Assembly: GCA_016839365.1 (NCBI GenBank)
Contig: JAEOUH010000071.1
Coordinates: 26,865 to 90,864 of the forward strand
Direction: 5' to 3'
Source: Candidatus Hermodarchaeota archaeon
GTDB taxonomy: Archaea > Asgardarchaeota > Hermodarchaeia > Hermodarchaeales > Hermodarchaeaceae
Length of the DNA: 64,000 nt
Shown here: one piece after another, positions 4,276-53,749 of the stretch
Layout of the letters: each line of letters begins with the position of its first letter
How positions within the stretch are numbered: the stretch's first letter is position 1
Program-made: the position numbers and the translations under genes
Notes under the pieces: generated by a model
What the model saw: the letters and a program-made list of their open reading frames with translations, nothing else
The model's database searches: none
Told to the model about the DNA's origin: nothing

Positions 4276-4737
4276 TTAAGGTTGCTCGAATTGAGATTGC
4301 AGGTTTTTGAGTGTCTGGCGAGCATCGGCCCGAATCTGTTCATCAAGTTGTTGCCGGGTCTCTTCATCGAGTTTGCGTCCAAGGAATACTTCAGGCAAGT
4401 CATAGGTGATTTCGTAAGTCACCCGTGTACCGTTCGCGGTGTGCTCGAAAAACCACCGAGCATCCTTGAAAGGTTGTCCCGAAAGTGATCGAACGTGTAA
4501 GGATCGACCTAGTTGAAGTTCAACAACTTCTAATTCTTGAGTAAAGCGAAAGTCCTTGACACTGACGCCCATAGCGAAGCGGGCACCGACACCCCATAGG
4601 GCCTCTGTGGTTGGATCATAGCTTGTTACTGAAGCGATGAGCTTGGGAACATTCCGATGATTTACGGCATATTTGAACACTTGCTCAAGAGGAGCTTTGA
4701 TTTCGATACTTTCGCTGACATCTGTCATTTTCTGCAT
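4276..4737 (-). CDS. SRPBCC (START/polyketide-cyclase-like) family protein
   Basis: SIEIKAPLEQVF...GVGARF...GTRVTYEITY pattern; 153 aa. Confidence 0.8.
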   Translation of the reverse strand: MQKMTDVSESIEIKAPLEQVFKYAVNHRNVPKLIASVTSYDPTTEALWGVGARFAMGVSVKDFRFTQELEVVELQLGRSLHVRSLSGQPFKDARWFFEHTANGTRVTYEITYDLPEVFLGRKLDEETRQQLDEQIRADARQTLKNLQSQFEQP

Positions 4738-4773
4738 CCTTCTATTCTTAGCTAGCCTTTCAGTTCTTAAAAT

Positions 4774-6102
4774 TTAGCGATGTAAGTATTCATCCCATTC
4801 GAAATCTGTAATCGTTTCGTGTGTGTATCGATGCCATTCCGCTTCCCGAATAGCTTTGTAAACATCACAGAACTTTTTGCCTAGAACCTCACATAGAACA
4901 TCGTCACTATGGAGCGCATGAAGCGCGCCCTTGAGAGATTCAGGAAGTTGTAATATTTTCATTTGGTTCAATCTTTTTGGCGTAAGTTCGTATACATTTT
5001 CAGTGACAGGTTCTGGAGGCTGAAGTTTACGTTGAACACCAGTAATACCCGCGCCCAGTAAAACAGCGAATAGAAGGTATGGATTCGCAAGAGGGTCGGG
5101 AGAACGGAATTCCACCGCAGCTTTTTCAACACTGTTGAAGAGAGGAATTCGTATCAGTGTTGAACGGTTAAGATAACCCCAACTTATGTAAACTGGGGCT
5201 TCAAACCCGGGAACCAGTCGTTTGAAGGAATTCACCGTCGGATTAGCTAGCGCTGTGATTCCAGGAGCATGTTTGAGTAGACCAGCAACGAAATGTAATC
5301 CGGTGTCAGAGAGGGTGCCATCAGGCATTCCTAATAAGTTTTGATTGCCTTTCCATAGTTGGAGATGACAATGAAGACCACTCCCTGCTTCACTGGAAAA
5401 GGGTTTAGGCATGAAACTAACTTCAACATCATAGAGGGCGGCGCGTCGGCGGAGAAGCAGTTTGAAGATTATGAAATTGTCTGCGGCTTGTCCGAGCTCA
5501 GTGAAAGCTAGTTCAATTTCCTGTTGGCTTTGTCCATGCTCTGAATGTAGCCAAGCCGTTTCGATTCCGATAGCTCGTAAATCAAGGGCTGTTTCAAGCA
5601 GAAGATCCATACCCCGATTTTCAGGAAAAATATCCGCATATTCTGCGTCGTCGAGTGGCACCCCATCTGTGGTCAAGAAGTAGAATTCTGGTTCGAGTTT
5701 GACTCGTATTTGAAGACCATTGGCAGCGAGCTGTTCCAGGTTCTGTTTTAGAATTGTGCGTGGTGCCATTGGATGAGGAGTGAGGTCTCCATCTGGTCCA
5801 CGTTGGTAAACGTCAGCAATGACTACTGCGCGTCGAGGATGGCTATTTGGTAATTCTTGAATAGTGGAAATATCTGGAACCAACTGGAGATCTGATGTAG
5901 TAATTGAGGCTAATCCCTTCACCGACGACCCATCAACACCACAACTGGGAACCAGGGAGGAGTCCTTCTTGAGTGCTGAAATGGAATCAACGGGGTTGAT
6001 GGGTACCGTCATGCCCTTGGGAACACCATCAATATCGACCGTGAGTAATTCGACGAAGTGCAGTTTTCCTCGGCTTTCAGCTGGATTCATTTCACCAGGC
6101 AT
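4774..6102 (-). CDS. glnA: Glutamine synthetase (type I family)
   Basis: DGSS, EPEFY, HSEHGQSQQE, FMPKP, GSGLHCH, PGFEAP, NRSTLIRIP, EFRSPD motifs. Confidence 0.88.
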   Translation of the reverse strand: MPGEMNPAESRGKLHFVELLTVDIDGVPKGMTVPINPVDSISALKKDSSLVPSCGVDGSSVKGLASITTSDLQLVPDISTIQELPNSHPRRAVVIADVYQRGPDGDLTPHPMAPRTILKQNLEQLAANGLQIRVKLEPEFYFLTTDGVPLDDAEYADIFPENRGMDLLLETALDLRAIGIETAWLHSEHGQSQQEIELAFTELGQAADNFIIFKLLLRRRAALYDVEVSFMPKPFSSEAGSGLHCHLQLWKGNQNLLGMPDGTLSDTGLHFVAGLLKHAPGITALANPTVNSFKRLVPGFEAPVYISWGYLNRSTLIRIPLFNSVEKAAVEFRSPDPLANPYLLFAVLLGAGITGVQRKLQPPEPVTENVYELTPKRLNQMKILQLPESLKGALHALHSDDVLCEVLGKKFCDVYKAIREAEWHRYTHETITDFEWDEYLHR

Positions 6103-6251
6103 ACTTGGACCTCCACTCTATAATTGGGAGAGATAGAACAGGGATGTGTGCTTTTAAAGCTTGATATGGAGTATATCTACCATCAATCCTTCATAGATTT
6201 GGATAAGTTTATTGGGATATACCCCGTTTTGAGCATAAGAGGGCAATCTGT

Positions 6252-8183
6252 ATGAAAGGGGCGCGATCACTTTTTTGTCTCCTCCTTATCCTGCTCTTTC
6301 TTCTTCCTTCAAACGCCCCAATCGATTTTAGGACCTCCCAATCATCGCCAACTCCTCAAATGGTCTCAACCTTACCCAATAGGGACCAGGTATTAGATTC
6401 CTCACCAGAGAAGTCGACGTTTTCGTCGAATGGAAATGCTCCCCGGAATTGGACAGTTCTTGTGTATATGGCTGCAGACAATGATCAGGAATTTGCTGCC
6501 ATTGAAAACATCAAAGAAATGGAAGTTGTTGGGTCAACCGAGCAGGTGAATATCCTAGTCTATGTGGATTTCCTGACTAACAACACAAGCTATGGTCCAG
6601 GAGCCTACACCTTCAATATTACAAAGGATGAGCCGCCGTTGAATAACACAATTGTTTCTGAGCCCTTGAATACTACGCTACCTGATGAGCCCAATATGGG
6701 GGATCCCACTACTCTTTTCGGCTTTATCGAATTTGGCCAAAACTATTCTCAGGCCGCTAACTATCTCCTCATCCTATGGGATAAGGGAGGAGGTTACAAG
6801 GGAGTATGTTATGATGACACCAGTGGTGGAGACCATCTCCTCCTTCCTGAACTCGCGACTGTCCTCGAAAATGATACCCTCGAGCCCATCACTCTCATTG
6901 CCTTTGACGCTTCATTCATGGGGCAAATGGAACTCGCTTACGAGTTAAAGGACAGCACCGAGTTCATCGTTTTCTCAGAAGAGGCAGTTCCTAACCAGCA
7001 TTTCCCCTACCACATTATTTTCAATAGCCTCATTTCACACGAAGATTCAAGTCCATACTTATTGGCGAAAGAAATCATTGACCGCTACATTGAAGCCTAC
7101 TCCCCCCTCGGAACATACCATAATCCAGTTTCACCACAGACTCGGCTTTGCCTTTCAGTCGTTAACACAACACTAGTAGGTGATGTCTTCGATTGGTTCA
7201 ATCGAACCACTACCTGGCTAACCACTGGTTATAACACTCTTACTTACTATCAAGAAATCAGTGCCGCACGGGGATTAACTCAACAGTTCAACCTGCCTTA
7301 CTACATCGATTTAGGTGGCTTCGCCTATCAACTCTCACAGTTAATACAGAATATCACATTCACACATTATACTGGGAATCTTAGCCTCAGTATTCAGGCA
7401 GCAGTTTCCTACAACCGTGCCCTCTCCGGGCTACCTGGTACGTCAGGGCTAGCCATAAATTTCAACTCTTATGAGCCAGTGTCACTGGCACTTCTAAATA
7501 ATGCCGTATACGAAGAGTTTCTTTCCACGTTCCTTAGCCTTGGAGAAACAACAGACACCTCCATTATCTCATTGACACTTGGTCCCCTTCAGGGGTACCT
7601 GGATGGAAAAGATGACTCCGTATTTTATCGGTTCACCTCACAAATCGCTGTGGAGCATACCATCACGCTTGGCGCATTTCAATCCACTGACGACGACTTT
7701 GACCTCTATTTATATGATAGTAATCTGAACCTCCTCACCCGATCTGTCGGCTTAGCATCCGATGAAGCCATACAATGGGTTCTGATTCCTGGACGGCTCT
7801 ACTATATACATGTTCATTCCAGTCCACGAGCTGAGATCACATATGGACTCGGTTCATTTGAAGTGCGTATAATTCCAAGTTCACCGATTAATCCAGCAAC
7901 AGTTGCACTGCATATTGGAATCATCGTGGCCATCATCTGTTTACTCTTTCTTGCGCTCTACATCATCTGGCGTAATCGAGAACACATCACAGGAGCCATT
8001 GAACGATATCGGGTCCGACGAGTGGCGAGGCGACTCCAACCTGAAGCATCGACGGGAACTATACAATCAACCGCTACGCCCGGAGCTTGTTTGAAGTGTG
8101 GTGAACAGCTCCCTGAGGATGCACGATTCTGCCCCAACTGCGGCGAAACTTTCGAGGATTCTTCAGGCGAGACCAAGGATTAG
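6252..8183 (+). CDS. Clostripain (peptidase C11)-like surface protein with PPC-like domain, C-terminal TM helix and cytoplasmic zinc ribbon; catalytic His and Cys both replaced
   Basis: Signal peptide; WTVLVYMAADND, EPNMGDP, LILWDKGGG, FDASFM, SEE motifs; DFDLYLYD PPC-like segment; TM helix IGIIVAIICLLFLALYIIW; CLKCG..CPNCG. Confidence 0.8.
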   Translation: MKGARSLFCLLLILLFLLPSNAPIDFRTSQSSPTPQMVSTLPNRDQVLDSSPEKSTFSSNGNAPRNWTVLVYMAADNDQEFAAIENIKEMEVVGSTEQVNILVYVDFLTNNTSYGPGAYTFNITKDEPPLNNTIVSEPLNTTLPDEPNMGDPTTLFGFIEFGQNYSQAANYLLILWDKGGGYKGVCYDDTSGGDHLLLPELATVLENDTLEPITLIAFDASFMGQMELAYELKDSTEFIVFSEEAVPNQHFPYHIIFNSLISHEDSSPYLLAKEIIDRYIEAYSPLGTYHNPVSPQTRLCLSVVNTTLVGDVFDWFNRTTTWLTTGYNTLTYYQEISAARGLTQQFNLPYYIDLGGFAYQLSQLIQNITFTHYTGNLSLSIQAAVSYNRALSGLPGTSGLAINFNSYEPVSLALLNNAVYEEFLSTFLSLGETTDTSIISLTLGPLQGYLDGKDDSVFYRFTSQIAVEHTITLGAFQSTDDDFDLYLYDSNLNLLTRSVGLASDEAIQWVLIPGRLYYIHVHSSPRAEITYGLGSFEVRIIPSSPINPATVALHIGIIVAIICLLFLALYIIWRNREHITGAIERYRVRRVARRLQPEASTGTIQSTATPGACLKCGEQLPEDARFCPNCGETFEDSSGETKD

Positions 8184-9967
8184 TCCTTGAGAAGGGCTTC
8201 TAGTTGGGATATGAACTCTTCAGCTTGCTTCATGCCCAGGCCCCAGAAGTCTTCCTTCGAAATATCAAAGCCTAGTTCATCCGCCAGTTCTCGTGGGGAG
8301 CTAGTACTGCCTGCTGAGAGTAGTCGCCTAAGCTTAGGTACGAAGTCCTGTCCTTGTTCTTTATAGAGCCGGTAAAGAGCATACACAAACAAATTAGCAA
8401 AAACGTATGGGTAGTTGTAAAGTCGATACCTAGGAATGTAGTAATGTCCCTTGAAGGTCCACTCCCACTTGCTTTCTGGCAGCCACTCTACTGCATCGCC
8501 AAACATACGGTCTCGACCCTCCACCCAGTATTTCGAAATAGTTTCTCCGTCAAGATACTCACCTCGCTCAAATGCAGCATACATATCCATTTCGAAGAAA
8601 TATCGAGCAGTGACTTGGAATACGGTTTGTCCAAATTCGTCAAGGACCCTTCCTAACACTTCCAACTTCTCATCCTTGGTTTTTGCTTCAGCAAGGAGTT
8701 TGTCTGTGAGAAGTAGTTCGCCAAAGATACTCCCAACTTCTGCAATACAGCTGCCGATATCCATATTGATGGGTTTGTGTTTTGCAGTCATGAGATAATC
8801 GTGGACGGCATGACCGTTCTCATGGACTAAGGTAAAGACTTCGCCCAGTTTGCCATTATAGCTCATAAGGATGAATGCTGACTTTCCTGCATTCCAGGAG
8901 GCACAGAATGCTCCTTGGCGTTTGCCTTCACGAACATCTCCATCAATGCGGTGCTTATCAAACATTTCCGCAACAATTTCAGCAAGATCCGGATCAAATC
9001 CTTGGTAAGTATCGAAGGCTATTTGCCGAGCTTCGTTCCATGTGAAACTGTGTTCAGGCATATTGGGTAATGGTGCGACCACGTCCCATTCACCGAGTTT
9101 GGGGACCTTCATTATCTTCGCTTTCAATCGAAGATACTTCTGATAAAGAGCAGTATGGTTATCGACGGTATTGATCAGCGCATCGATGGTCTCGTCATCA
9201 ACATCGTTGTCAATAAGGCTCTGTGTACGAGGAGATGGCCATTTACGTTTCTTGCTAGTCTCTACATGGTCACCGATTATGGCACGGACAGCACTGGCCC
9301 AGAGAATCTGGTCTTTTCCAAGACCTGTCCAGATGATGCTCTTAGCCGCTTTACGAACATCACGATCTGAGTCCTCGAAGAGGGCATGAATCTGTGTGAA
9401 CGGCATTTGCTTCAGCTCCCCTTCGATTTCAATTTCAAACATCCGTGTCGAGAGCCAGTCACTATGGAGCTGCTGCCAAGAGTTAATGCCAAACTGGTCC
9501 TTCTGAATAATCAGTTGCTCAAGCTCTTCACTTAGCATATGTGGTGCGGTCCGAGCTGCCTTTTCAAGAGCATGTTTGTACTCAGCTAGCTCAGGATTCT
9601 TAATAAGTTCAGGTCTCGCTGCAACCAACTGGGCAAGTTCTATCTCTGAGAAAGCCAACAGTTGTCCTATCTTCGAGCTCATTCGTCTTGCCAAATCAGC
9701 TACCTGTTTGGCATCTTCGTCAAGCGAATTGGCGGCGTAAGCAAGATATGCATATAAGAACGCCCCTTCACGTTTCAAATACTGGTCTTGGGTTTTTTCG
9801 AGAAACGATAACAATTCCTTTGGGTTTAGCTTTCTGATTTTTCCTTTATACTCAGATGCCAACGCTTCTGCATCTTGGACTGCTTTTTCCATTTGCATTT
9901 TCAAACTGTCGAGTTTCGTCGAAGGAACCATTGGGCTTAGGTCCCACGACTCACCTTTAATCGTCAT
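8180..9967 (-). CDS. pepF: Oligoendopeptidase F (peptidase M3B)
   Basis: WDLS N-terminus, GKRQGAFC, HENGH (HExxH), AEVGSIFGE, YNYPY. Start set at MTIKGESWDL because the longer ORF overlaps the kinase gene. Confidence 0.88.
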   Translation of the reverse strand: MTIKGESWDLSPMVPSTKLDSLKMQMEKAVQDAEALASEYKGKIRKLNPKELLSFLEKTQDQYLKREGAFLYAYLAYAANSLDEDAKQVADLARRMSSKIGQLLAFSEIELAQLVAARPELIKNPELAEYKHALEKAARTAPHMLSEELEQLIIQKDQFGINSWQQLHSDWLSTRMFEIEIEGELKQMPFTQIHALFEDSDRDVRKAAKSIIWTGLGKDQILWASAVRAIIGDHVETSKKRKWPSPRTQSLIDNDVDDETIDALINTVDNHTALYQKYLRLKAKIMKVPKLGEWDVVAPLPNMPEHSFTWNEARQIAFDTYQGFDPDLAEIVAEMFDKHRIDGDVREGKRQGAFCASWNAGKSAFILMSYNGKLGEVFTLVHENGHAVHDYLMTAKHKPINMDIGSCIAEVGSIFGELLLTDKLLAEAKTKDEKLEVLGRVLDEFGQTVFQVTARYFFEMDMYAAFERGEYLDGETISKYWVEGRDRMFGDAVEWLPESKWEWTFKGHYYIPRYRLYNYPYVFANLFVYALYRLYKEQGQDFVPKLRRLLSAGSTSSPRELADELGFDISKEDFWGLGMKQAEEFISQLEALLKD

Positions 9968-50589: not shown

Positions 50590-51039
50590 ATGAGTAAATC
50601 CACTCAGCACAGTAAACAGAAGAAGACCCCCAAACGGCGAAAAGTAGAGGTGGAGACACCAGAGGATTTACCCGAAGCCATTGGCTGGCTTCGCAAAGTA
50701 TTAGCTACTTCCTATTCGATGAACGAAGAGGGAATTATTCGTTTGAAGAAACAATTCGATCAATTATATGATGATCATGTTGAGGAATTTGATCGGAAAC
50801 TCATGAAGTCTGATTTGGAAAACAAAGACATCTTTGGTGAGTGCTTAGCTGCAAAAGAGATTCTGGGACATCTTCTGGCAGTGTGTAAATATCTTGAGCT
50901 GATTTTGGCTACAAAACAACTTCCAGCAGATTTGAAATCAGAGCAGCGAGAATCTGGAGCCCTCACAAGAACCCTGCAAAGGGATTTAACTTCTGAATTA
51001 CGGACCTTTTCACAGCGATTAGAACAGTTACAATCTTAG
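50590..51039 (+). CDS. Hypothetical all-alpha protein with basic N-terminus
   Basis: 149-aa ORF, KQKKTPKRRK leader, amphipathic helices. Confidence 0.65.
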   Translation: MSKSTQHSKQKKTPKRRKVEVETPEDLPEAIGWLRKVLATSYSMNEEGIIRLKKQFDQLYDDHVEEFDRKLMKSDLENKDIFGECLAAKEILGHLLAVCKYLELILATKQLPADLKSEQRESGALTRTLQRDLTSELRTFSQRLEQLQS

Positions 51040-51206
51040 CTCATTAATTGAATTTACCTACTCAGTACACTTCGACTTCGCAACCAACTTAATATTCCAG
51101 GAAACAAAGCAAAACGCTTTTGGGAATTCAGAACTAATTGAAATTCGATACCACATTAAACATGTAATCTTGAGCTCTTAAACCAAATAAATGAGGGCTA
51201 TTTCTT

Positions 51207-51953
51207 ATGACGGGAATTTCTTTAATTATGGATTCATTGAAAAAAAACCAAGCTGTCGTCGAAGAATTGACAGCGACGACAAAACGAGAAATTACGGAAA
51301 TCCAAACCCAAATTGACCAACTCCTGAAGCTGGTTACACTTCTCCAAGATGAGTGGGACGAACGGAAAGCCATTGAGGAAGAGTTAACCCGGGAAACAGC
51401 AGCATTGGAAGGCGAATTGTCTGCTGAAAGTCAGGAACATGGAAAATTAGAGTCGACAAGTGCAACCCAAAAGCAGGCTATCATGGAAGCGAAGACGGAA
51501 AGAGAACAACTCCAGAGAGAGCTAGCTGATATCGAAAGAAAACTTGAGGGCTTTGAAGATGATATTCGGAATGCTGAGCGGGCGCTACGCGAAGCAGAGA
51601 AGAATATGAACAAAGTCAATGAGAAGCTTTCGTCCGTCGATGACAAATTCAGTGAGCAACTTCAAAGTATCGATGCACAGGTAGCCGAAGCACGTAATGA
51701 GGCGGAATTACAGGGGGCCCGATACAAAGCATTGCGTTACTTGTTGTTGGAAGGCATTGTGAGTATGCCCGAAGCAAAGGTAGCAGCGGAGCTTAAAGAC
51801 AAAGACACCACAACCCTTGACCACTTACAAAAAACTACATTCATTGGGCGATTTAAGGTGCGAGAAATTATCCTGCAAATGGCTGAACGTAAGATTGTAC
51901 ATTTCGACAAGGAGACAGAACAGGTGAAGGTACTCAAACAGATTGATTTGTAA
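51207..51953 (+). CDS. Long coiled-coil protein with C-terminal winged-helix-like domain (paralog A)
   Basis: About 175 aa of heptad-rich E/K/Q helix, then YLLLE..PE...L, three short helices and a beta-wing (QMAERKIVHF...VKV). Confidence 0.75.
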   Translation: MTGISLIMDSLKKNQAVVEELTATTKREITEIQTQIDQLLKLVTLLQDEWDERKAIEEELTRETAALEGELSAESQEHGKLESTSATQKQAIMEAKTEREQLQRELADIERKLEGFEDDIRNAERALREAEKNMNKVNEKLSSVDDKFSEQLQSIDAQVAEARNEAELQGARYKALRYLLLEGIVSMPEAKVAAELKDKDTTTLDHLQKTTFIGRFKVREIILQMAERKIVHFDKETEQVKVLKQIDL

Positions 51954-51960
51954 CCGTTGA

Positions 51961-52710
51961 GTGGAAGTGAAAGAGATGGCAGAAATTAAGCAAATCCAAC
52001 AGATCCTTGAACAGAATCAAGCACGAATGAAAGCCATACGGGAAGCCTTCCGCAGCCAAATGTCAGCACTTATCGATGAGGTGACCAATGCACAACAAAG
52101 CTTGATTCGTATAGAACGTGAAATTCAATTATCCGAATCTCGAATCGAAGAAAAAAATACCACAATCAGTCATAACCGAGAACAACTAGCCCAGTTACGA
52201 GAATCAGGATCAGCGATGGAAGCAAAAATCGCTGGACTATACTCTGAGCTGAGCGAACAACAACAACAGATTACCGTACTGAAAGCATCTATAATGGAGA
52301 AATCAGGTCGCTTAGAATCTCTTGAAGCTGAAGCAAGACAAAGGGCAAAAGCCCTTGAGTCAAGACAGACCCTCCTTGATGAGAAACAAAAAGAACTAGG
52401 ACGCCTCCAAGCAAATAAGGATCAAGAACTCGCAAAACAAAATGAGGAACTCAAGAGGGCAAAAAAACAGATTAAAGACGTGAAGAAAGAGAATCCAGTT
52501 GCCGATTATCTATTAACAGAGGCTCATGAGCCCCCGGAACTTGATATTCTTGCCGTTCTCATTCATCAAAAAGAGGCCCCGGTATCTGAACTCAAACGTC
52601 TATCAAAATCACCCCCAGCCATTACATCTCGCATCCTCAAAGAGATGGAAAACAAAGGAATCATCGAACTCACAGGTTCAGACACAGCTCGATTAGTAAT
52701 TTCAATTTAG
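51961..52710 (+). CDS. Long coiled-coil protein with C-terminal winged-helix-like domain (paralog B)
   Basis: Same architecture; YLLTE..PPELDILAVL...SRILKEMENKGIIEL; starts 7 nt after paralog A (ATG alternative at 51976). Confidence 0.75.
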   Translation: MEVKEMAEIKQIQQILEQNQARMKAIREAFRSQMSALIDEVTNAQQSLIRIEREIQLSESRIEEKNTTISHNREQLAQLRESGSAMEAKIAGLYSELSEQQQQITVLKASIMEKSGRLESLEAEARQRAKALESRQTLLDEKQKELGRLQANKDQELAKQNEELKRAKKQIKDVKKENPVADYLLTEAHEPPELDILAVLIHQKEAPVSELKRLSKSPPAITSRILKEMENKGIIELTGSDTARLVISI

Positions 52711-52765: not shown

Positions 52766-53749
52766 GTGTTGGATGGTCGGACTTTGCATTCAGAATTAAA
52801 AAAACAAGATACGAAGCCAGATAAGAAAGCAGAGTCCAAATCCTATCCAGAACGTCAACTGGCAAAAATGCTAAAAGATCAACCTTTGACCCTTCCAGAA
52901 ACCAACCACAATCTCATTATTGGCGACAGTCGACGCATGACAGAACTTGCTGATGAATCAGTTCACTTGATTGTGACTTCACCCCCATACCCCATGATTG
53001 AAATATGGGATAACTTGTTTGCAGAAATGGGATTTAATGACTTTGCTGCGATGCACTTATATCTGGCTGAGGTTTGGAGCGAATGCTTCCGGATCCTTGT
53101 TAATGGCGGCATCGCCTGCATCAACATCGGAGATGCACTCCGAAAAATCGACGACAATTTTCAATTATATCCGAACCATGTAAAGGTCATTGAGCACTGT
53201 GAAGCGTTGGGATTTACCAGCCTTCCCTATATTCTGTGGAAAAAACCAACAACACGAGCTAATGCTTTTCTCGGTTCTGGTTTCATCCCACCCAACGCTT
53301 ATGTAACCCAAGATTGTGAATTCATCCTTGTCTTTCGCAAAGGACAACCTCGAGAATTTCCACCCAAAGATTTGATTCGTTATGCAAGCCATTATACAAT
53401 TCCTGAACGAAACACTTGGTTCACACAAATATGGAAGCTCCCGGGCACCCGACAGCACATCCCGCAGATAGCCCGGCGGGTGGCAGCGTTTCCTGAAGAA
53501 ATCGCGTACCGTCTAATTCGAATGTTTTCCATCATCGGAGATACCGTTGTTGATCCTTTTTTGGGAACAGGAACCACCATGAAAGTTGCACGAGACAATC
53601 ACCGCAATAGCATCGGATATGAGATCGATGAAAAACTAGTTCCAGTAATCGAGGACAGATTAAGCAGTGATGATCTCCTCAAGCCGCGTCACCGTCGAAA
53701 GAAAATCCAAGGATATCATATTACCTATCAAAAAACCAACCCAGAATAG
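52766..53749 (+). CDS. Site-specific DNA methyltransferase, N4-cytosine type (beta class)
   Basis: IIGDS, TSPPY catalytic motif before DPFLGTGTT SAM-binding motif, AFP, GYEID. Confidence 0.88.
   Translation: MLDGRTLHSELKKQDTKPDKKAESKSYPERQLAKMLKDQPLTLPETNHNLIIGDSRRMTELADESVHLIVTSPPYPMIEIWDNLFAEMGFNDFAAMHLYLAEVWSECFRILVNGGIACINIGDALRKIDDNFQLYPNHVKVIEHCEALGFTSLPYILWKKPTTRANAFLGSGFIPPNAYVTQDCEFILVFRKGQPREFPPKDLIRYASHYTIPERNTWFTQIWKLPGTRQHIPQIARRVAAFPEEIAYRLIRMFSIIGDTVVDPFLGTGTTMKVARDNHRNSIGYEIDEKLVPVIEDRLSSDDLLKPRHRRKKIQGYHITYQKTNPE

Follow-up and report, generated by a model that had tools for sequence, protein, structure and literature searches.

Three genes on the forward strand occupy positions 50,590 to 52,710 of the analysed window, a stretch of 64,000 nucleotides from Candidatus Hermodarchaeota archaeon (contig JAEOUH010000071.1), and an ORF check of the window found them present as an earlier sequence-only reading of this DNA had given them. 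The features of the locus are as follows.

50590..51039, forward strand: 149-aa gene encoding a helical protein with the basic stretch KKTPKRRK at residues 11–18
51040..51206, intergenic: AT-rich spacer of 167 nt separating gene A from the 149-aa gene
51207..51953, forward strand: gene A, 248 aa, with a rod at residues 1–181 and a divergent winged-helix (wHTH) head at residues 186–248
51976..52710, forward strand: gene B, 244 aa from the ATG at 51976, with a rod at residues 1–182 and a wHTH head at residues 186–240

The head of A (residues 186–248) corresponds to window positions 51762–51950. For gene B an in-frame GTG at 51961 provides an alternative start that would yield 249 aa (51961–52710), and this was the form given by the sequence-only reading, which had described proteins of 248 and 249 aa lying 7 nt apart. 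Its length for A was reproduced, while B is probably a protein of 244 aa separated from A by 22 nt rather than 7, because B homologues are nearly all 244–245 aa long and begin at a Met equivalent to the ATG at 51976. The promoter of the A–B unit probably resides within the 167-nt spacer, and in two congeneric genomes (G010 and G006) a second pair, A'–B', occupies the position of this spacer.

AlphaFold2 models of both proteins were generated from input alignments of 22 sequences. In the model of A (mean pLDDT 87.1), a helix spanning residues 2–181 is followed by the order H-S-H-H-S-S over residues 188–242, and the block-mean pLDDT of the helix exceeds 90 for residues 21–160, with no hairpin. 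The model of B (pLDDT 86.8) comprises helix 2–172 and 174–182 with the same wHTH order over residues 186–240, and the protein stops directly after the wing (strand 237–240 of 244 residues). As modelled, each chain is thus a helix of about 180 residues, which in a coiled coil would be about 26 nm long, joined to a minimal wHTH domain of about 60 residues. No proline was found in the rods, and neither protein has a Walker A motif or a TM-like stretch, the KD-19 maximum being 0.89 for A and 0.71 for B. The initial description of two equal-length proteins with coiled coil and winged helix is therefore upheld by the rod and wHTH modelled in both and by the Foldseek matches of the heads described below.

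Several familiar identities were considered for proteins of this shape. An SMC or Rad50 identity was ruled out, as the sequence-only reading had already argued, since Walker A is absent, A is only 248 aa long, and the NCBIfam SMC matches cover the rod only, with 26–28 bits against cut-offs of 567–729; the JGI product name of homologues, 'chromosome segregation ATPase', is probably an echo of coiled-coil similarity. An ESCRT-III/CdvB protein with a wH tail was ruled out by the absence of a Snf7 match and by the single continuous helix, with no α1-α2 hairpin, in the model of A. As to SMC accessory proteins, the A–B pair neither matches Pfam SMC_ScpA or SMC_ScpB nor stands in for them; replacement of the kleisin/kite proteins by the pair was rejected because the same genome encodes a canonical ScpB (110 bits) together with ScpA on contig C15.

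Plain BLASTP of A against B detected no similarity, so that their relationship is visible only to profile methods. With hhalign, the two align over the whole length with E 9e-7; the heads alone, compared with more diverse alignments, gave 97.9% probability and E 3.8e-13, and the rods alone 97.8% probability and E 1.1e-12, residues 1–167 lying on residues 1–167 in 167 ungapped columns. By profile comparison, A and B are ancient paralogues of matched length, and the earlier claim of homologous heads in paralogous proteins is sustained by the separate comparisons of head and rod. In the phylogenetic tree one branch divides A from B with support 99/98, and lineage sub-groups are mirrored on the two sides; the duplication is therefore older than the sampled Asgard lineages.

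A match to the A profile at E ≤ 1e-5 was obtained in 286 of 400 Asgard genomes, in 64 of the 90 high-quality genomes and in 68 of 85 genera. All family members carrying organism names are Asgard, namely Thor-, Hermod-, Hod-, Kari- and Baldr-archaeal. B follows directly after A in 24 of 24 testable units from at least nine Asgard families, these being the window, nine units in eight distant loci, and another 14 units from a set of 16 loci; in the two left over, the contig stops right after A. Conservation of the pair, which the sequence-only reading had made its own test by synteny, is hence confirmed in these units. Protein lengths stay within 241–258 aa across the 24 pairs, the stop codon of A overlaps the start codon of B in many other lineages, and where extra copies occur (G010 and G006 in the same genus; G029 and G039) it is the whole A–B pair that is duplicated.

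Among 1.84 billion cluster representatives about 45 family-type matches were retrieved, either full or partial including the head, plus a few rod-only fragments; below them, among the matches listed, stood long proteins with several coiled-coil stretches that matched the rod, and none of the 150 matches listed had an alternative architecture with an A/B-type head. A search of the ESM Atlas by features and shape returned unnamed Promethearchaeota clusters followed by PCI, DprA and FtsK-gamma WH domains as weak matches (TM < 0.4), while a PDB sequence search with the A and B profiles gave generic coiled-coil matches and, for B, a weak MarR match (E 0.46). No description of the A/B family was found in the literature on Asgard coiled-coil, winged-helix or heterodimer proteins.

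Of 14 other genomes in the genus, 11 also have the upstream 149-aa protein, with within-genus identity of 53–87%, and its gene adjoins gene A wherever the coordinates of both are listed. A single-sequence query found it in none of 26 genomes outside the genus, Pfam and NCBIfam assign it no family, and hhalign gave less than 1% probability against the A and B profiles. Its candidacy as a conserved third subunit was rejected on account of this genus-restricted occurrence and lack of relationship to A and B, and it does not belong to the A–B module. No phylum-wide conserved neighbour of the A–B pair was observed in the loci examined; in the Loki-type family f9, a kinase-like gene is kept immediately upstream.

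The reading we favour, with a probability of roughly 0.45, is that A and B are subunits of one conserved, Asgard-specific rod, a parallel two-headed DNA-binding heterodimer with a structural role. A and B would be made in equal amounts and zipped into an A/B coiled-coil dimer, for which a parallel, in-register arrangement is favoured, with both wHTH heads next to each other at one end of the rod and, at the far end, two conserved N-terminal segments of about 20 residues. As proposed from fold and family resemblance, the head pair would bind DNA, with B bearing a canonical MarR/TrmB recognition-helix signature and the head of A having diverged, and the rod could keep a fixed distance, as a spacer or tether, in a structural role associated with the nucleoid, as opposed to a small-molecule-sensing repressor.

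With regard to the heads, the nearest structures to both in Foldseek were wHTH domains of the MarR family, with a best E of 2.4e-3 for the A head and 1.5e-3 for the B head, and VIA-align superposed them on many wHTH domains with Z 9–10 and 1.3–2.0 Å rmsd over about 60 residues. Superposition on MarR-family wHTH domains takes in part of the helix entering the domain in both heads. The B head scores 25.2–25.4 bits against Pfam MarR (PF01047), marginally over the cut-off of 24.6, whereas the A head of the window protein has no wHTH match in Pfam, and one or two of 13 A-family members match MarR_2, TrmB or FtsK_gamma at E ≤ 0.1.

Winged-helix domains can also bind proteins, as in ESCRT-II, CdvB, kleisins and cullins, and the rival that survives best, somewhat unlikely as we judge it, is a protein–protein adaptor whose heads bind ESCRT-III-like filaments, the cytoskeleton or a membrane complex in place of DNA, and whose rod would resemble the stalk-plus-wH parts of archaeal ESCRT-like systems. 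The charge of the heads would suit such an adaptor, the mean net value being -0.6 for the A wHTH and -1.9 for the B wHTH, close to neutral or mildly acidic, with wing tips that are not basic, in proteins that are acidic as a whole; the A head, devoid of the MarR/TrmB sequence signature, yet keeps an invariant motif of its own, D-H-L-x-K-T-T-F-I-G, and VIA-align also returns protein-binding WH domains, such as the C-terminal WH of the cohesin kleisin (Z 8.7). Arguing for DNA instead, the MarR/TrmB regulator signature is kept by the B head across the family, MarR and TrmB each matching 11 of 13 diverse members at E ≤ 0.1, and the best structural matches of both heads are overwhelmingly DNA- or nucleic-acid-binding wHTH domains.

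The genomic evidence likewise stands against the adaptor. Proteins with a coiled coil and C-terminal wH are known in non-Asgard archaeal ESCRT loci, where Makarova et al. (2024) described arCOG09748 and arCOG11741 and proposed wH and coiled coil as ancestral ESCRT building blocks (PMC10936438). A and B resemble these in being archaeal and in domain order, the wH coming after the coiled coil at the C-terminus; in contrast to A and B, the two arCOGs are defined by Vps4 and ESCRT-III gene neighbours and carry extra domains, either a central globular domain or a duplicated wH (PMC10936438). The A–B pair shows no Vps4/ESCRT-III neighbourhood, and no ESCRT, actin or tubulin gene adjoins it, in 25 loci; in the same genome Vps4 (with its MIT domain) lies on contig C71 and the pair on contig C49. 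An ESCRT linkage is thus devoid of genomic support, and the wider tie to chromosome or cytoskeletal machinery suggested by the sequence-only reading falls away in gene context, there being no phylum-conserved neighbour and both Vps4 and ScpA/ScpB being encoded on other contigs.

The parallel dimer of the favoured reading was interrogated through the pattern of the rod. In A, three heptad phases succeed one another: a-positions lie at residues ≡4 mod 7 until about residue 24, at ≡1 between about residues 25 and 155, and at ≡5 beyond about 157. B follows the same three phases at about equal residue numbers, so that in both families the phase shifts near residues 25–33 and 150–157. Asn14 takes one shared heptad d position in the Thor/Hermod/Hod-type members of both families. 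Mean pairwise identity in A is 0.29 over the N-terminal 24 residues and 0.31 over neck and head, against 0.22 in the rod; the corresponding values in B are 0.28, 0.36 and 0.23. The ends are more conserved than the rod, and the pattern therefore fits functional ends linked by a spacer.

A heterodimer of A and B, as claimed from the sequence alone, is tentatively indicated by one complex prediction, in which A+B reached an ipSAE of 0.59 (three runs, 0.58–0.60) while the highest-scoring of three controls reached 0.00, with partner pLDDT of at least 84 and runs agreeing in at least 97% of contacts. The pass mark of the tool is reached by 58 of 80 solved complexes and by 2 of 110 mismatched pairs; at scores ≤ 0.60, however, few solved complexes pass (7 of 80) and both mismatches do, and the result was for this reason graded as weak support. 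It bears on pairing and carries no geometry for the chains. Counting g-e' charges over 24 pairs in parallel arrangement gave +0.085 for A/B at register 0 and +0.135 at +7, compared with -0.02 for AA and +0.06 for BB homodimers, a signal too small to decide either orientation or hetero-specificity. Polar residues at the a/d core positions frequently occupy different layers in the two chains, in a pattern too variable across the phylum to score.

An antiparallel dimer, either A/B or homodimeric, would carry a wHTH domain at each end and bridge two DNA segments, or link DNA to another ligand, across a distance of about 25 nm. The heptad discontinuities, at about residues 28 and 153 of about 180, are roughly mirror-symmetric along the rod, as such a dimer would have them, and the conserved N-terminal segment could pack on the equally conserved neck of the partner. 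Lying also at equal residue numbers in A and B, the discontinuities fit parallel and antiparallel pairs equally. The shared phases at equal numbers and the conserved Asn14 are, however, what a parallel in-register pair needs, and the g-g'/e-e' charge counts of antiparallel A/B were flat at every register tried, leaving this arrangement quite unlikely in our estimation.

Typically, MarR proteins are about 140–150 aa long, dimerise through N- and C-terminal helices flanking the wHTH and often possess a ligand pocket. The resemblance of A and B to MarR/TrmB regulators resides in the B head standing at the Pfam MarR cut-off and in the superposition of both heads on the MarR wHTH. Unlike MarR, they end at the wing, carry about 180 coiled-coil residues before the head and comprise two distinct paralogues that are always paired, and the whole-protein architecture of B departs from the MarR plan of flanking dimerisation helices. 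The least probable of the readings takes A and B for a pair of ordinary transcription factors that regulate genes independently, each homodimerising through its long helix and adjacent by mere tandem duplication. It accords with the MarR/TrmB-type head of B and with the name 'MarR family transcriptional regulator' that NCBI gives to one homologue, but it is opposed by an adjacency and order, often with overlapping stop and start, kept since before the sampled Asgard lineages split, by the constant rod length in both families, by duplication only of the whole pair, by the lack of a ligand-binding domain and of a conserved target-gene neighbourhood, and by a 26-nm dimerisation helix that far exceeds a repressor's need.

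Eukaryotic rods offer further points of comparison. Ska1, of the kinetochore Ska complex, has an N-terminal coiled coil and a C-terminal winged-helix-type domain in about 255 aa; its short coiled coil forms a three-helix bundle together with Ska2 and Ska3, and about 120 residues make up its WH, an elaborated module that binds microtubules. The searches run with A and B returned no Ska1 match in sequence or structure. Hop2-Mnd1 is a eukaryotic meiotic recombination cofactor whose two WH domains, in its crystal structure, are juxtaposed at one end of a parallel coiled-coil rod and bind DNA jointly, the WH being N-terminal and the rod consisting of three leucine zippers with kinked junctions (PMC4402518). 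A and B are likewise two paralogous chains of similar length, but their WH is C-terminal and their rod is modelled as a single unbroken helix. The Hop2 WH domain (2mh2) is one among many wHTH structural matches (Z 8.6, VIA-align), and the window proteins gave no match to Pfam TBPIP or Mnd1 at E ≤ 1. The likeness to Hop2-Mnd1 is one of analogy, not membership, and the comparisons once drawn with it, with Ska1, with Spc24-25 and with CdvB are reduced to architectural analogy, there being no sequence or family match. A bolder extension, which we hold to be very doubtful, would make the A/B rod an Asgard-specific tether of constant length, about 26 nm, with its paired heads on chromosomal DNA and its conserved N-terminal tips on a second structure of the cell, for instance membrane, actin or ESCRT-type filaments, an independently built counterpart of the eukaryotic paralogous rods.

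Overall, the A profile is matched in about 70% of the sampled Asgard genomes, including those of Hodarchaeales and Kariarchaeaceae, two groups counted among the archaea most closely related to eukaryotes. The duplication predates the split of the lineages containing these two groups, and protein length has since been held within 241–258 aa. Being small, soluble-looking and without cofactors, A and B are simple to test in vitro. Their interest would be modest if they turned out to form a transcription factor of an unusual kind; if the tether reading were true, they would represent a prokaryotic counterpart of Hop2-Mnd1 and the kinetochore rods on eukaryotic chromosomes. Two subunits forming a conserved rod with paired winged-helix heads would plausibly belong to the chromosome or cell architecture of Asgard archaea.

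Proteins A and B are matched-length paralogous rods with winged helix-turn-helix (wHTH) ends that are always co-encoded, and in the window their genes share a common orientation with the ORF of a 149-aa protein directly upstream.

Genes at the A-B locus of the window
50590-51039, + strand: 149-aa ORF (ORF and translation)
51207-51953, + strand: gene A, 248 aa (ORF and translation)
51961-52710, + strand: gene B ORF, 249 aa from GTG (ORF and translation)
52766-53749, + strand: N6/N4 DNA methylase (PF01555, E 3.5e-39)

The sequence-only reading had described two adjacent genes of 248 and 249 aa, 7 nt apart; the adjacency and the length of A stand, but since almost all B homologues (244-245 aa) start at the Met corresponding to ATG 51976, gene B is taken as 244 aa from this ATG, with an A-B gap of 22 nt. 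The ATG is preceded by a purine-rich stretch, and no terminator-like site was found between A and B. Walker A motifs and TM-like segments are absent from both proteins, and the first ~180 residues of each are free of proline, which agrees with the earlier argument that proteins devoid of ATPase and TM segments are not SMC.

Within the genus of the window, A and B are both present in 13 of 14 other genomes and adjacent in every one, A first. B likewise follows A at all eight distant loci on complete or large contigs (two each in G029 and G039, one each in G019, G021, G026 and G010) and at 14 of 16 further loci picked across families, often with the stop codon of A overlapping the start codon of B; at the remaining two the contig ends just past A. 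Asgard-wide synteny, suggested earlier as a check, was thus observed at every locus where the sequence past A could be seen. Extra copies comprise the whole pair in every case. G029 (L013/L014) and G039 (L015/L018), complete genomes of ~2.8 Mb from another Asgard family than that of the window, each carry two unlinked A-B pairs, which trace to one whole-pair duplication in a common ancestor. G010 and G006, of the window's genus, show the order A'-B'-A-B, where A'-B' is a second, highly diverged pair (L017 (G010:C27) 4563-8476; G006:C8 894-4588) placed after the homologue of the 149-aa gene and with the methylase gene following B; in the window this place is taken by nothing but 167 nt of spacer (51040-51206). 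In the tree described below, A' groups with A of its own genus (100/97 support) on a long branch.

Similarity between A and B was not found by BLASTP, and whole-length profile comparison of their close-family alignments gave E 9e-7. Because coiled coils can inflate such whole-length scores, two alignments, A3 and A4, each of 13 diverse members, were cut into heads and rods for separate comparison. The heads alone matched at a probability of 97.9% (E 3.8e-13, 69 columns), upholding the homology earlier proposed for them, and the rods alone at 97.8% (E 1.1e-12), residues 1-167 falling gap-free on 1-167; a junction motif, "YLL-x-E ... PE", is common to both families at the same position. When 24 sequences from each family were placed in a maximum-likelihood tree, one branch parted the families (99/98 support) and the same lineage groups recurred on both sides. 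The duplication is therefore older than the sampled Asgard lineages, and A and B have diverged in step since.

AlphaFold2 models, each built with 22-sequence alignments, gave for A a single helix (2-181) followed by helix-strand-helix-helix-strand-strand over 188-242 (pLDDT 87.1), and for B helices 2-172 and 174-182 followed by the same order over 186-240 (pLDDT 86.8), an element order that in these models is that of a canonical wHTH. Foldseek placed MarR-family regulators nearest to both heads (best E 2.4e-3 for A, 1.5e-3 for B). In VIA-align many different wHTH domains (SelB, SarA, MarR, ArsR, Z-alpha, CRP, FUR) matched at Z 9-10 and 1.3-2.0 Å over ~60 residues, with Hop2 WH at Z 8.6 and cohesin kleisin WH at Z 8.7; the predicted fold is hence a generic wHTH. 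The long helix and winged-helix head foreseen for each protein are borne out by the models, and the head also by the structural comparisons. The B head just reaches the Pfam MarR cut-off (25.2 versus 24.6 bits), and MarR and TrmB are each matched by 11 of 13 diverse B-family members; the A head has lost this signature and keeps an invariant motif of its own.

Owing to the MarR/TrmB signature of B and the structural neighbours of the heads, DNA binding would be the default reading. That the heads bind protein instead is a serious rival, since they are neutral to slightly acidic and their wing tips are not basic.

A and B would form an equimolar coiled-coil dimer, with a rod length calculated at ~25-27 nm (170-180 residues at ~0.148 nm, standard coiled-coil geometry). 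A single complex prediction of A with B weakly supports the heterodimer: ipSAE was 0.59 (0.58-0.60 over the runs), whereas the best of three controls scored 0.00, a grade set by the calibration, in which 7 of 80 solved complexes and both mismatched pairs that passed (2/110) passed at 0.60 or below. The partners were modelled at pLDDT 84 or higher, and the runs agreed on at least 97% of contacts. Across 24 A-B pairs, both families run through three heptad phases, with a-positions at residue ≡4 (mod 7) in the N-terminal part, ≡1 along the middle and ≡5 towards the neck, and the phase changes come at about the same residue numbers. In Thor/Hermod/Hod-type members, A and B also share Asn14 at an identical d position. 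Such matching is what a parallel in-register pair would require and equally what paralogues would simply inherit. The dimer may also be antiparallel, as the two heptad discontinuities are roughly mirror-symmetric; charge-pair counts did not discriminate the orientations.

No neighbour was conserved across the phylum in the loci examined, where the flanking genes encode, for example, MFS or ABC transporters and glutamate dehydrogenase. The methylase, which starts 56 nt past B and beside which no restriction enzyme was noticed, keeps its position in the one same-genus locus compared (G010) and not in more distant lineages. Other upstream genes, on the same strand as A, were as follows.

Genes upstream of A at other Asgard loci
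L020 8713-9555: ~280-aa gene of f9, a large Asgard family
L021 3024-3902: same f9 gene
L023 3021-3857: same f9 gene
L031 4838-5674: same f9 gene
L033 3036-3878: same f9 gene
L035 3065-3901: same f9 gene
L036 4857-5693: same f9 gene
L014 8957-10324, - strand: three small ORFs (133, 140, 174 aa) without Pfam family

The f9 gene, ~100 nt upstream of A in at least three genera, matches protein-kinase-like families only below threshold (RIO1 at 21.6 bits, Kdo at 19.9 bits, choline kinase). It may regulate the pair in this lineage or may merely reflect local synteny. The three small ORFs lie directly upstream of one G029 pair, with no counterpart at the orthologous G039 locus. The KKTPKRRK lysine/arginine patch (50590-50640) with which the 149-aa protein opens looks like a classical monopartite nuclear-localisation signal, though binding to nucleic acid or to acidic surfaces is its likelier meaning in an archaeon. 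Found only in the window's genus, faster evolving than A and unrelated to A and B, the protein is excluded from a conserved module. In the window's genome Vps4 lies on contig C71 and ScpA-ScpB on C15; thus nothing in the genomic context connects A/B with ESCRT or SMC machinery, which gives the proposed chromosome or cytoskeletal linker no backing from context, and replacement of kleisin or kite subunits is excluded. A/B belongs neither to SMC, ScpA/B nor ESCRT-III/CdvB and is no standard MarR regulator.

Of 400 Asgard-phylum genomes, 286 gave a match to the A profile at E ≤ 1e-5; the tally was 64 of 90 among high-quality genomes and 68 of 85 by genus. The matches inspected were the 150 listed, almost all of which span the profile from end to end within open frames of ~250-290 aa; a further 320 matches, and per-genome hits of lower significance (E 1e-6 to 1e-9), lie outside this set. 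Homologues with an organism name are all Asgard (Thor-, Hermod-, Hod-, Kari-, Baldr-archaea, or 'Promethearchaeota'). Among the matches listed from 1.84 billion cluster representatives, those containing the head were all ~250 aa or fragments and the others long coiled-coil proteins matched by the rod only; ESM Atlas returned Promethearchaeota clusters only. No relatives beyond Asgard archaea were found in these genome, cluster-representative and ESM Atlas searches, which does not prove absence elsewhere.

Makarova et al. 2024 reported coiled-coil proteins with a C-terminal wH in non-Asgard archaeal ESCRT loci and treated both elements as ESCRT building blocks (PMC10936438), whereas the A-B pair is without such a neighbourhood. 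No published description of the A/B family was found in literature on Asgard coiled-coil, winged-helix or heterodimer proteins. By analogy, Hop2-Mnd1 is the closest system in design: it has two paralogous chains with rod and WH domains, as in A/B, the rod being parallel and the two juxtaposed WH domains binding DNA (PMC4402518), but its WH is N-terminal and its rod kinked, while the WH of A/B is C-terminal. The likeness with reversed domain order is one of design, and a Pfam search detected no sequence relationship. In A and B the N-terminal ~24 residues and the neck plus head are more conserved than the rod, a pattern consistent with two functional ends spaced a constant distance apart.
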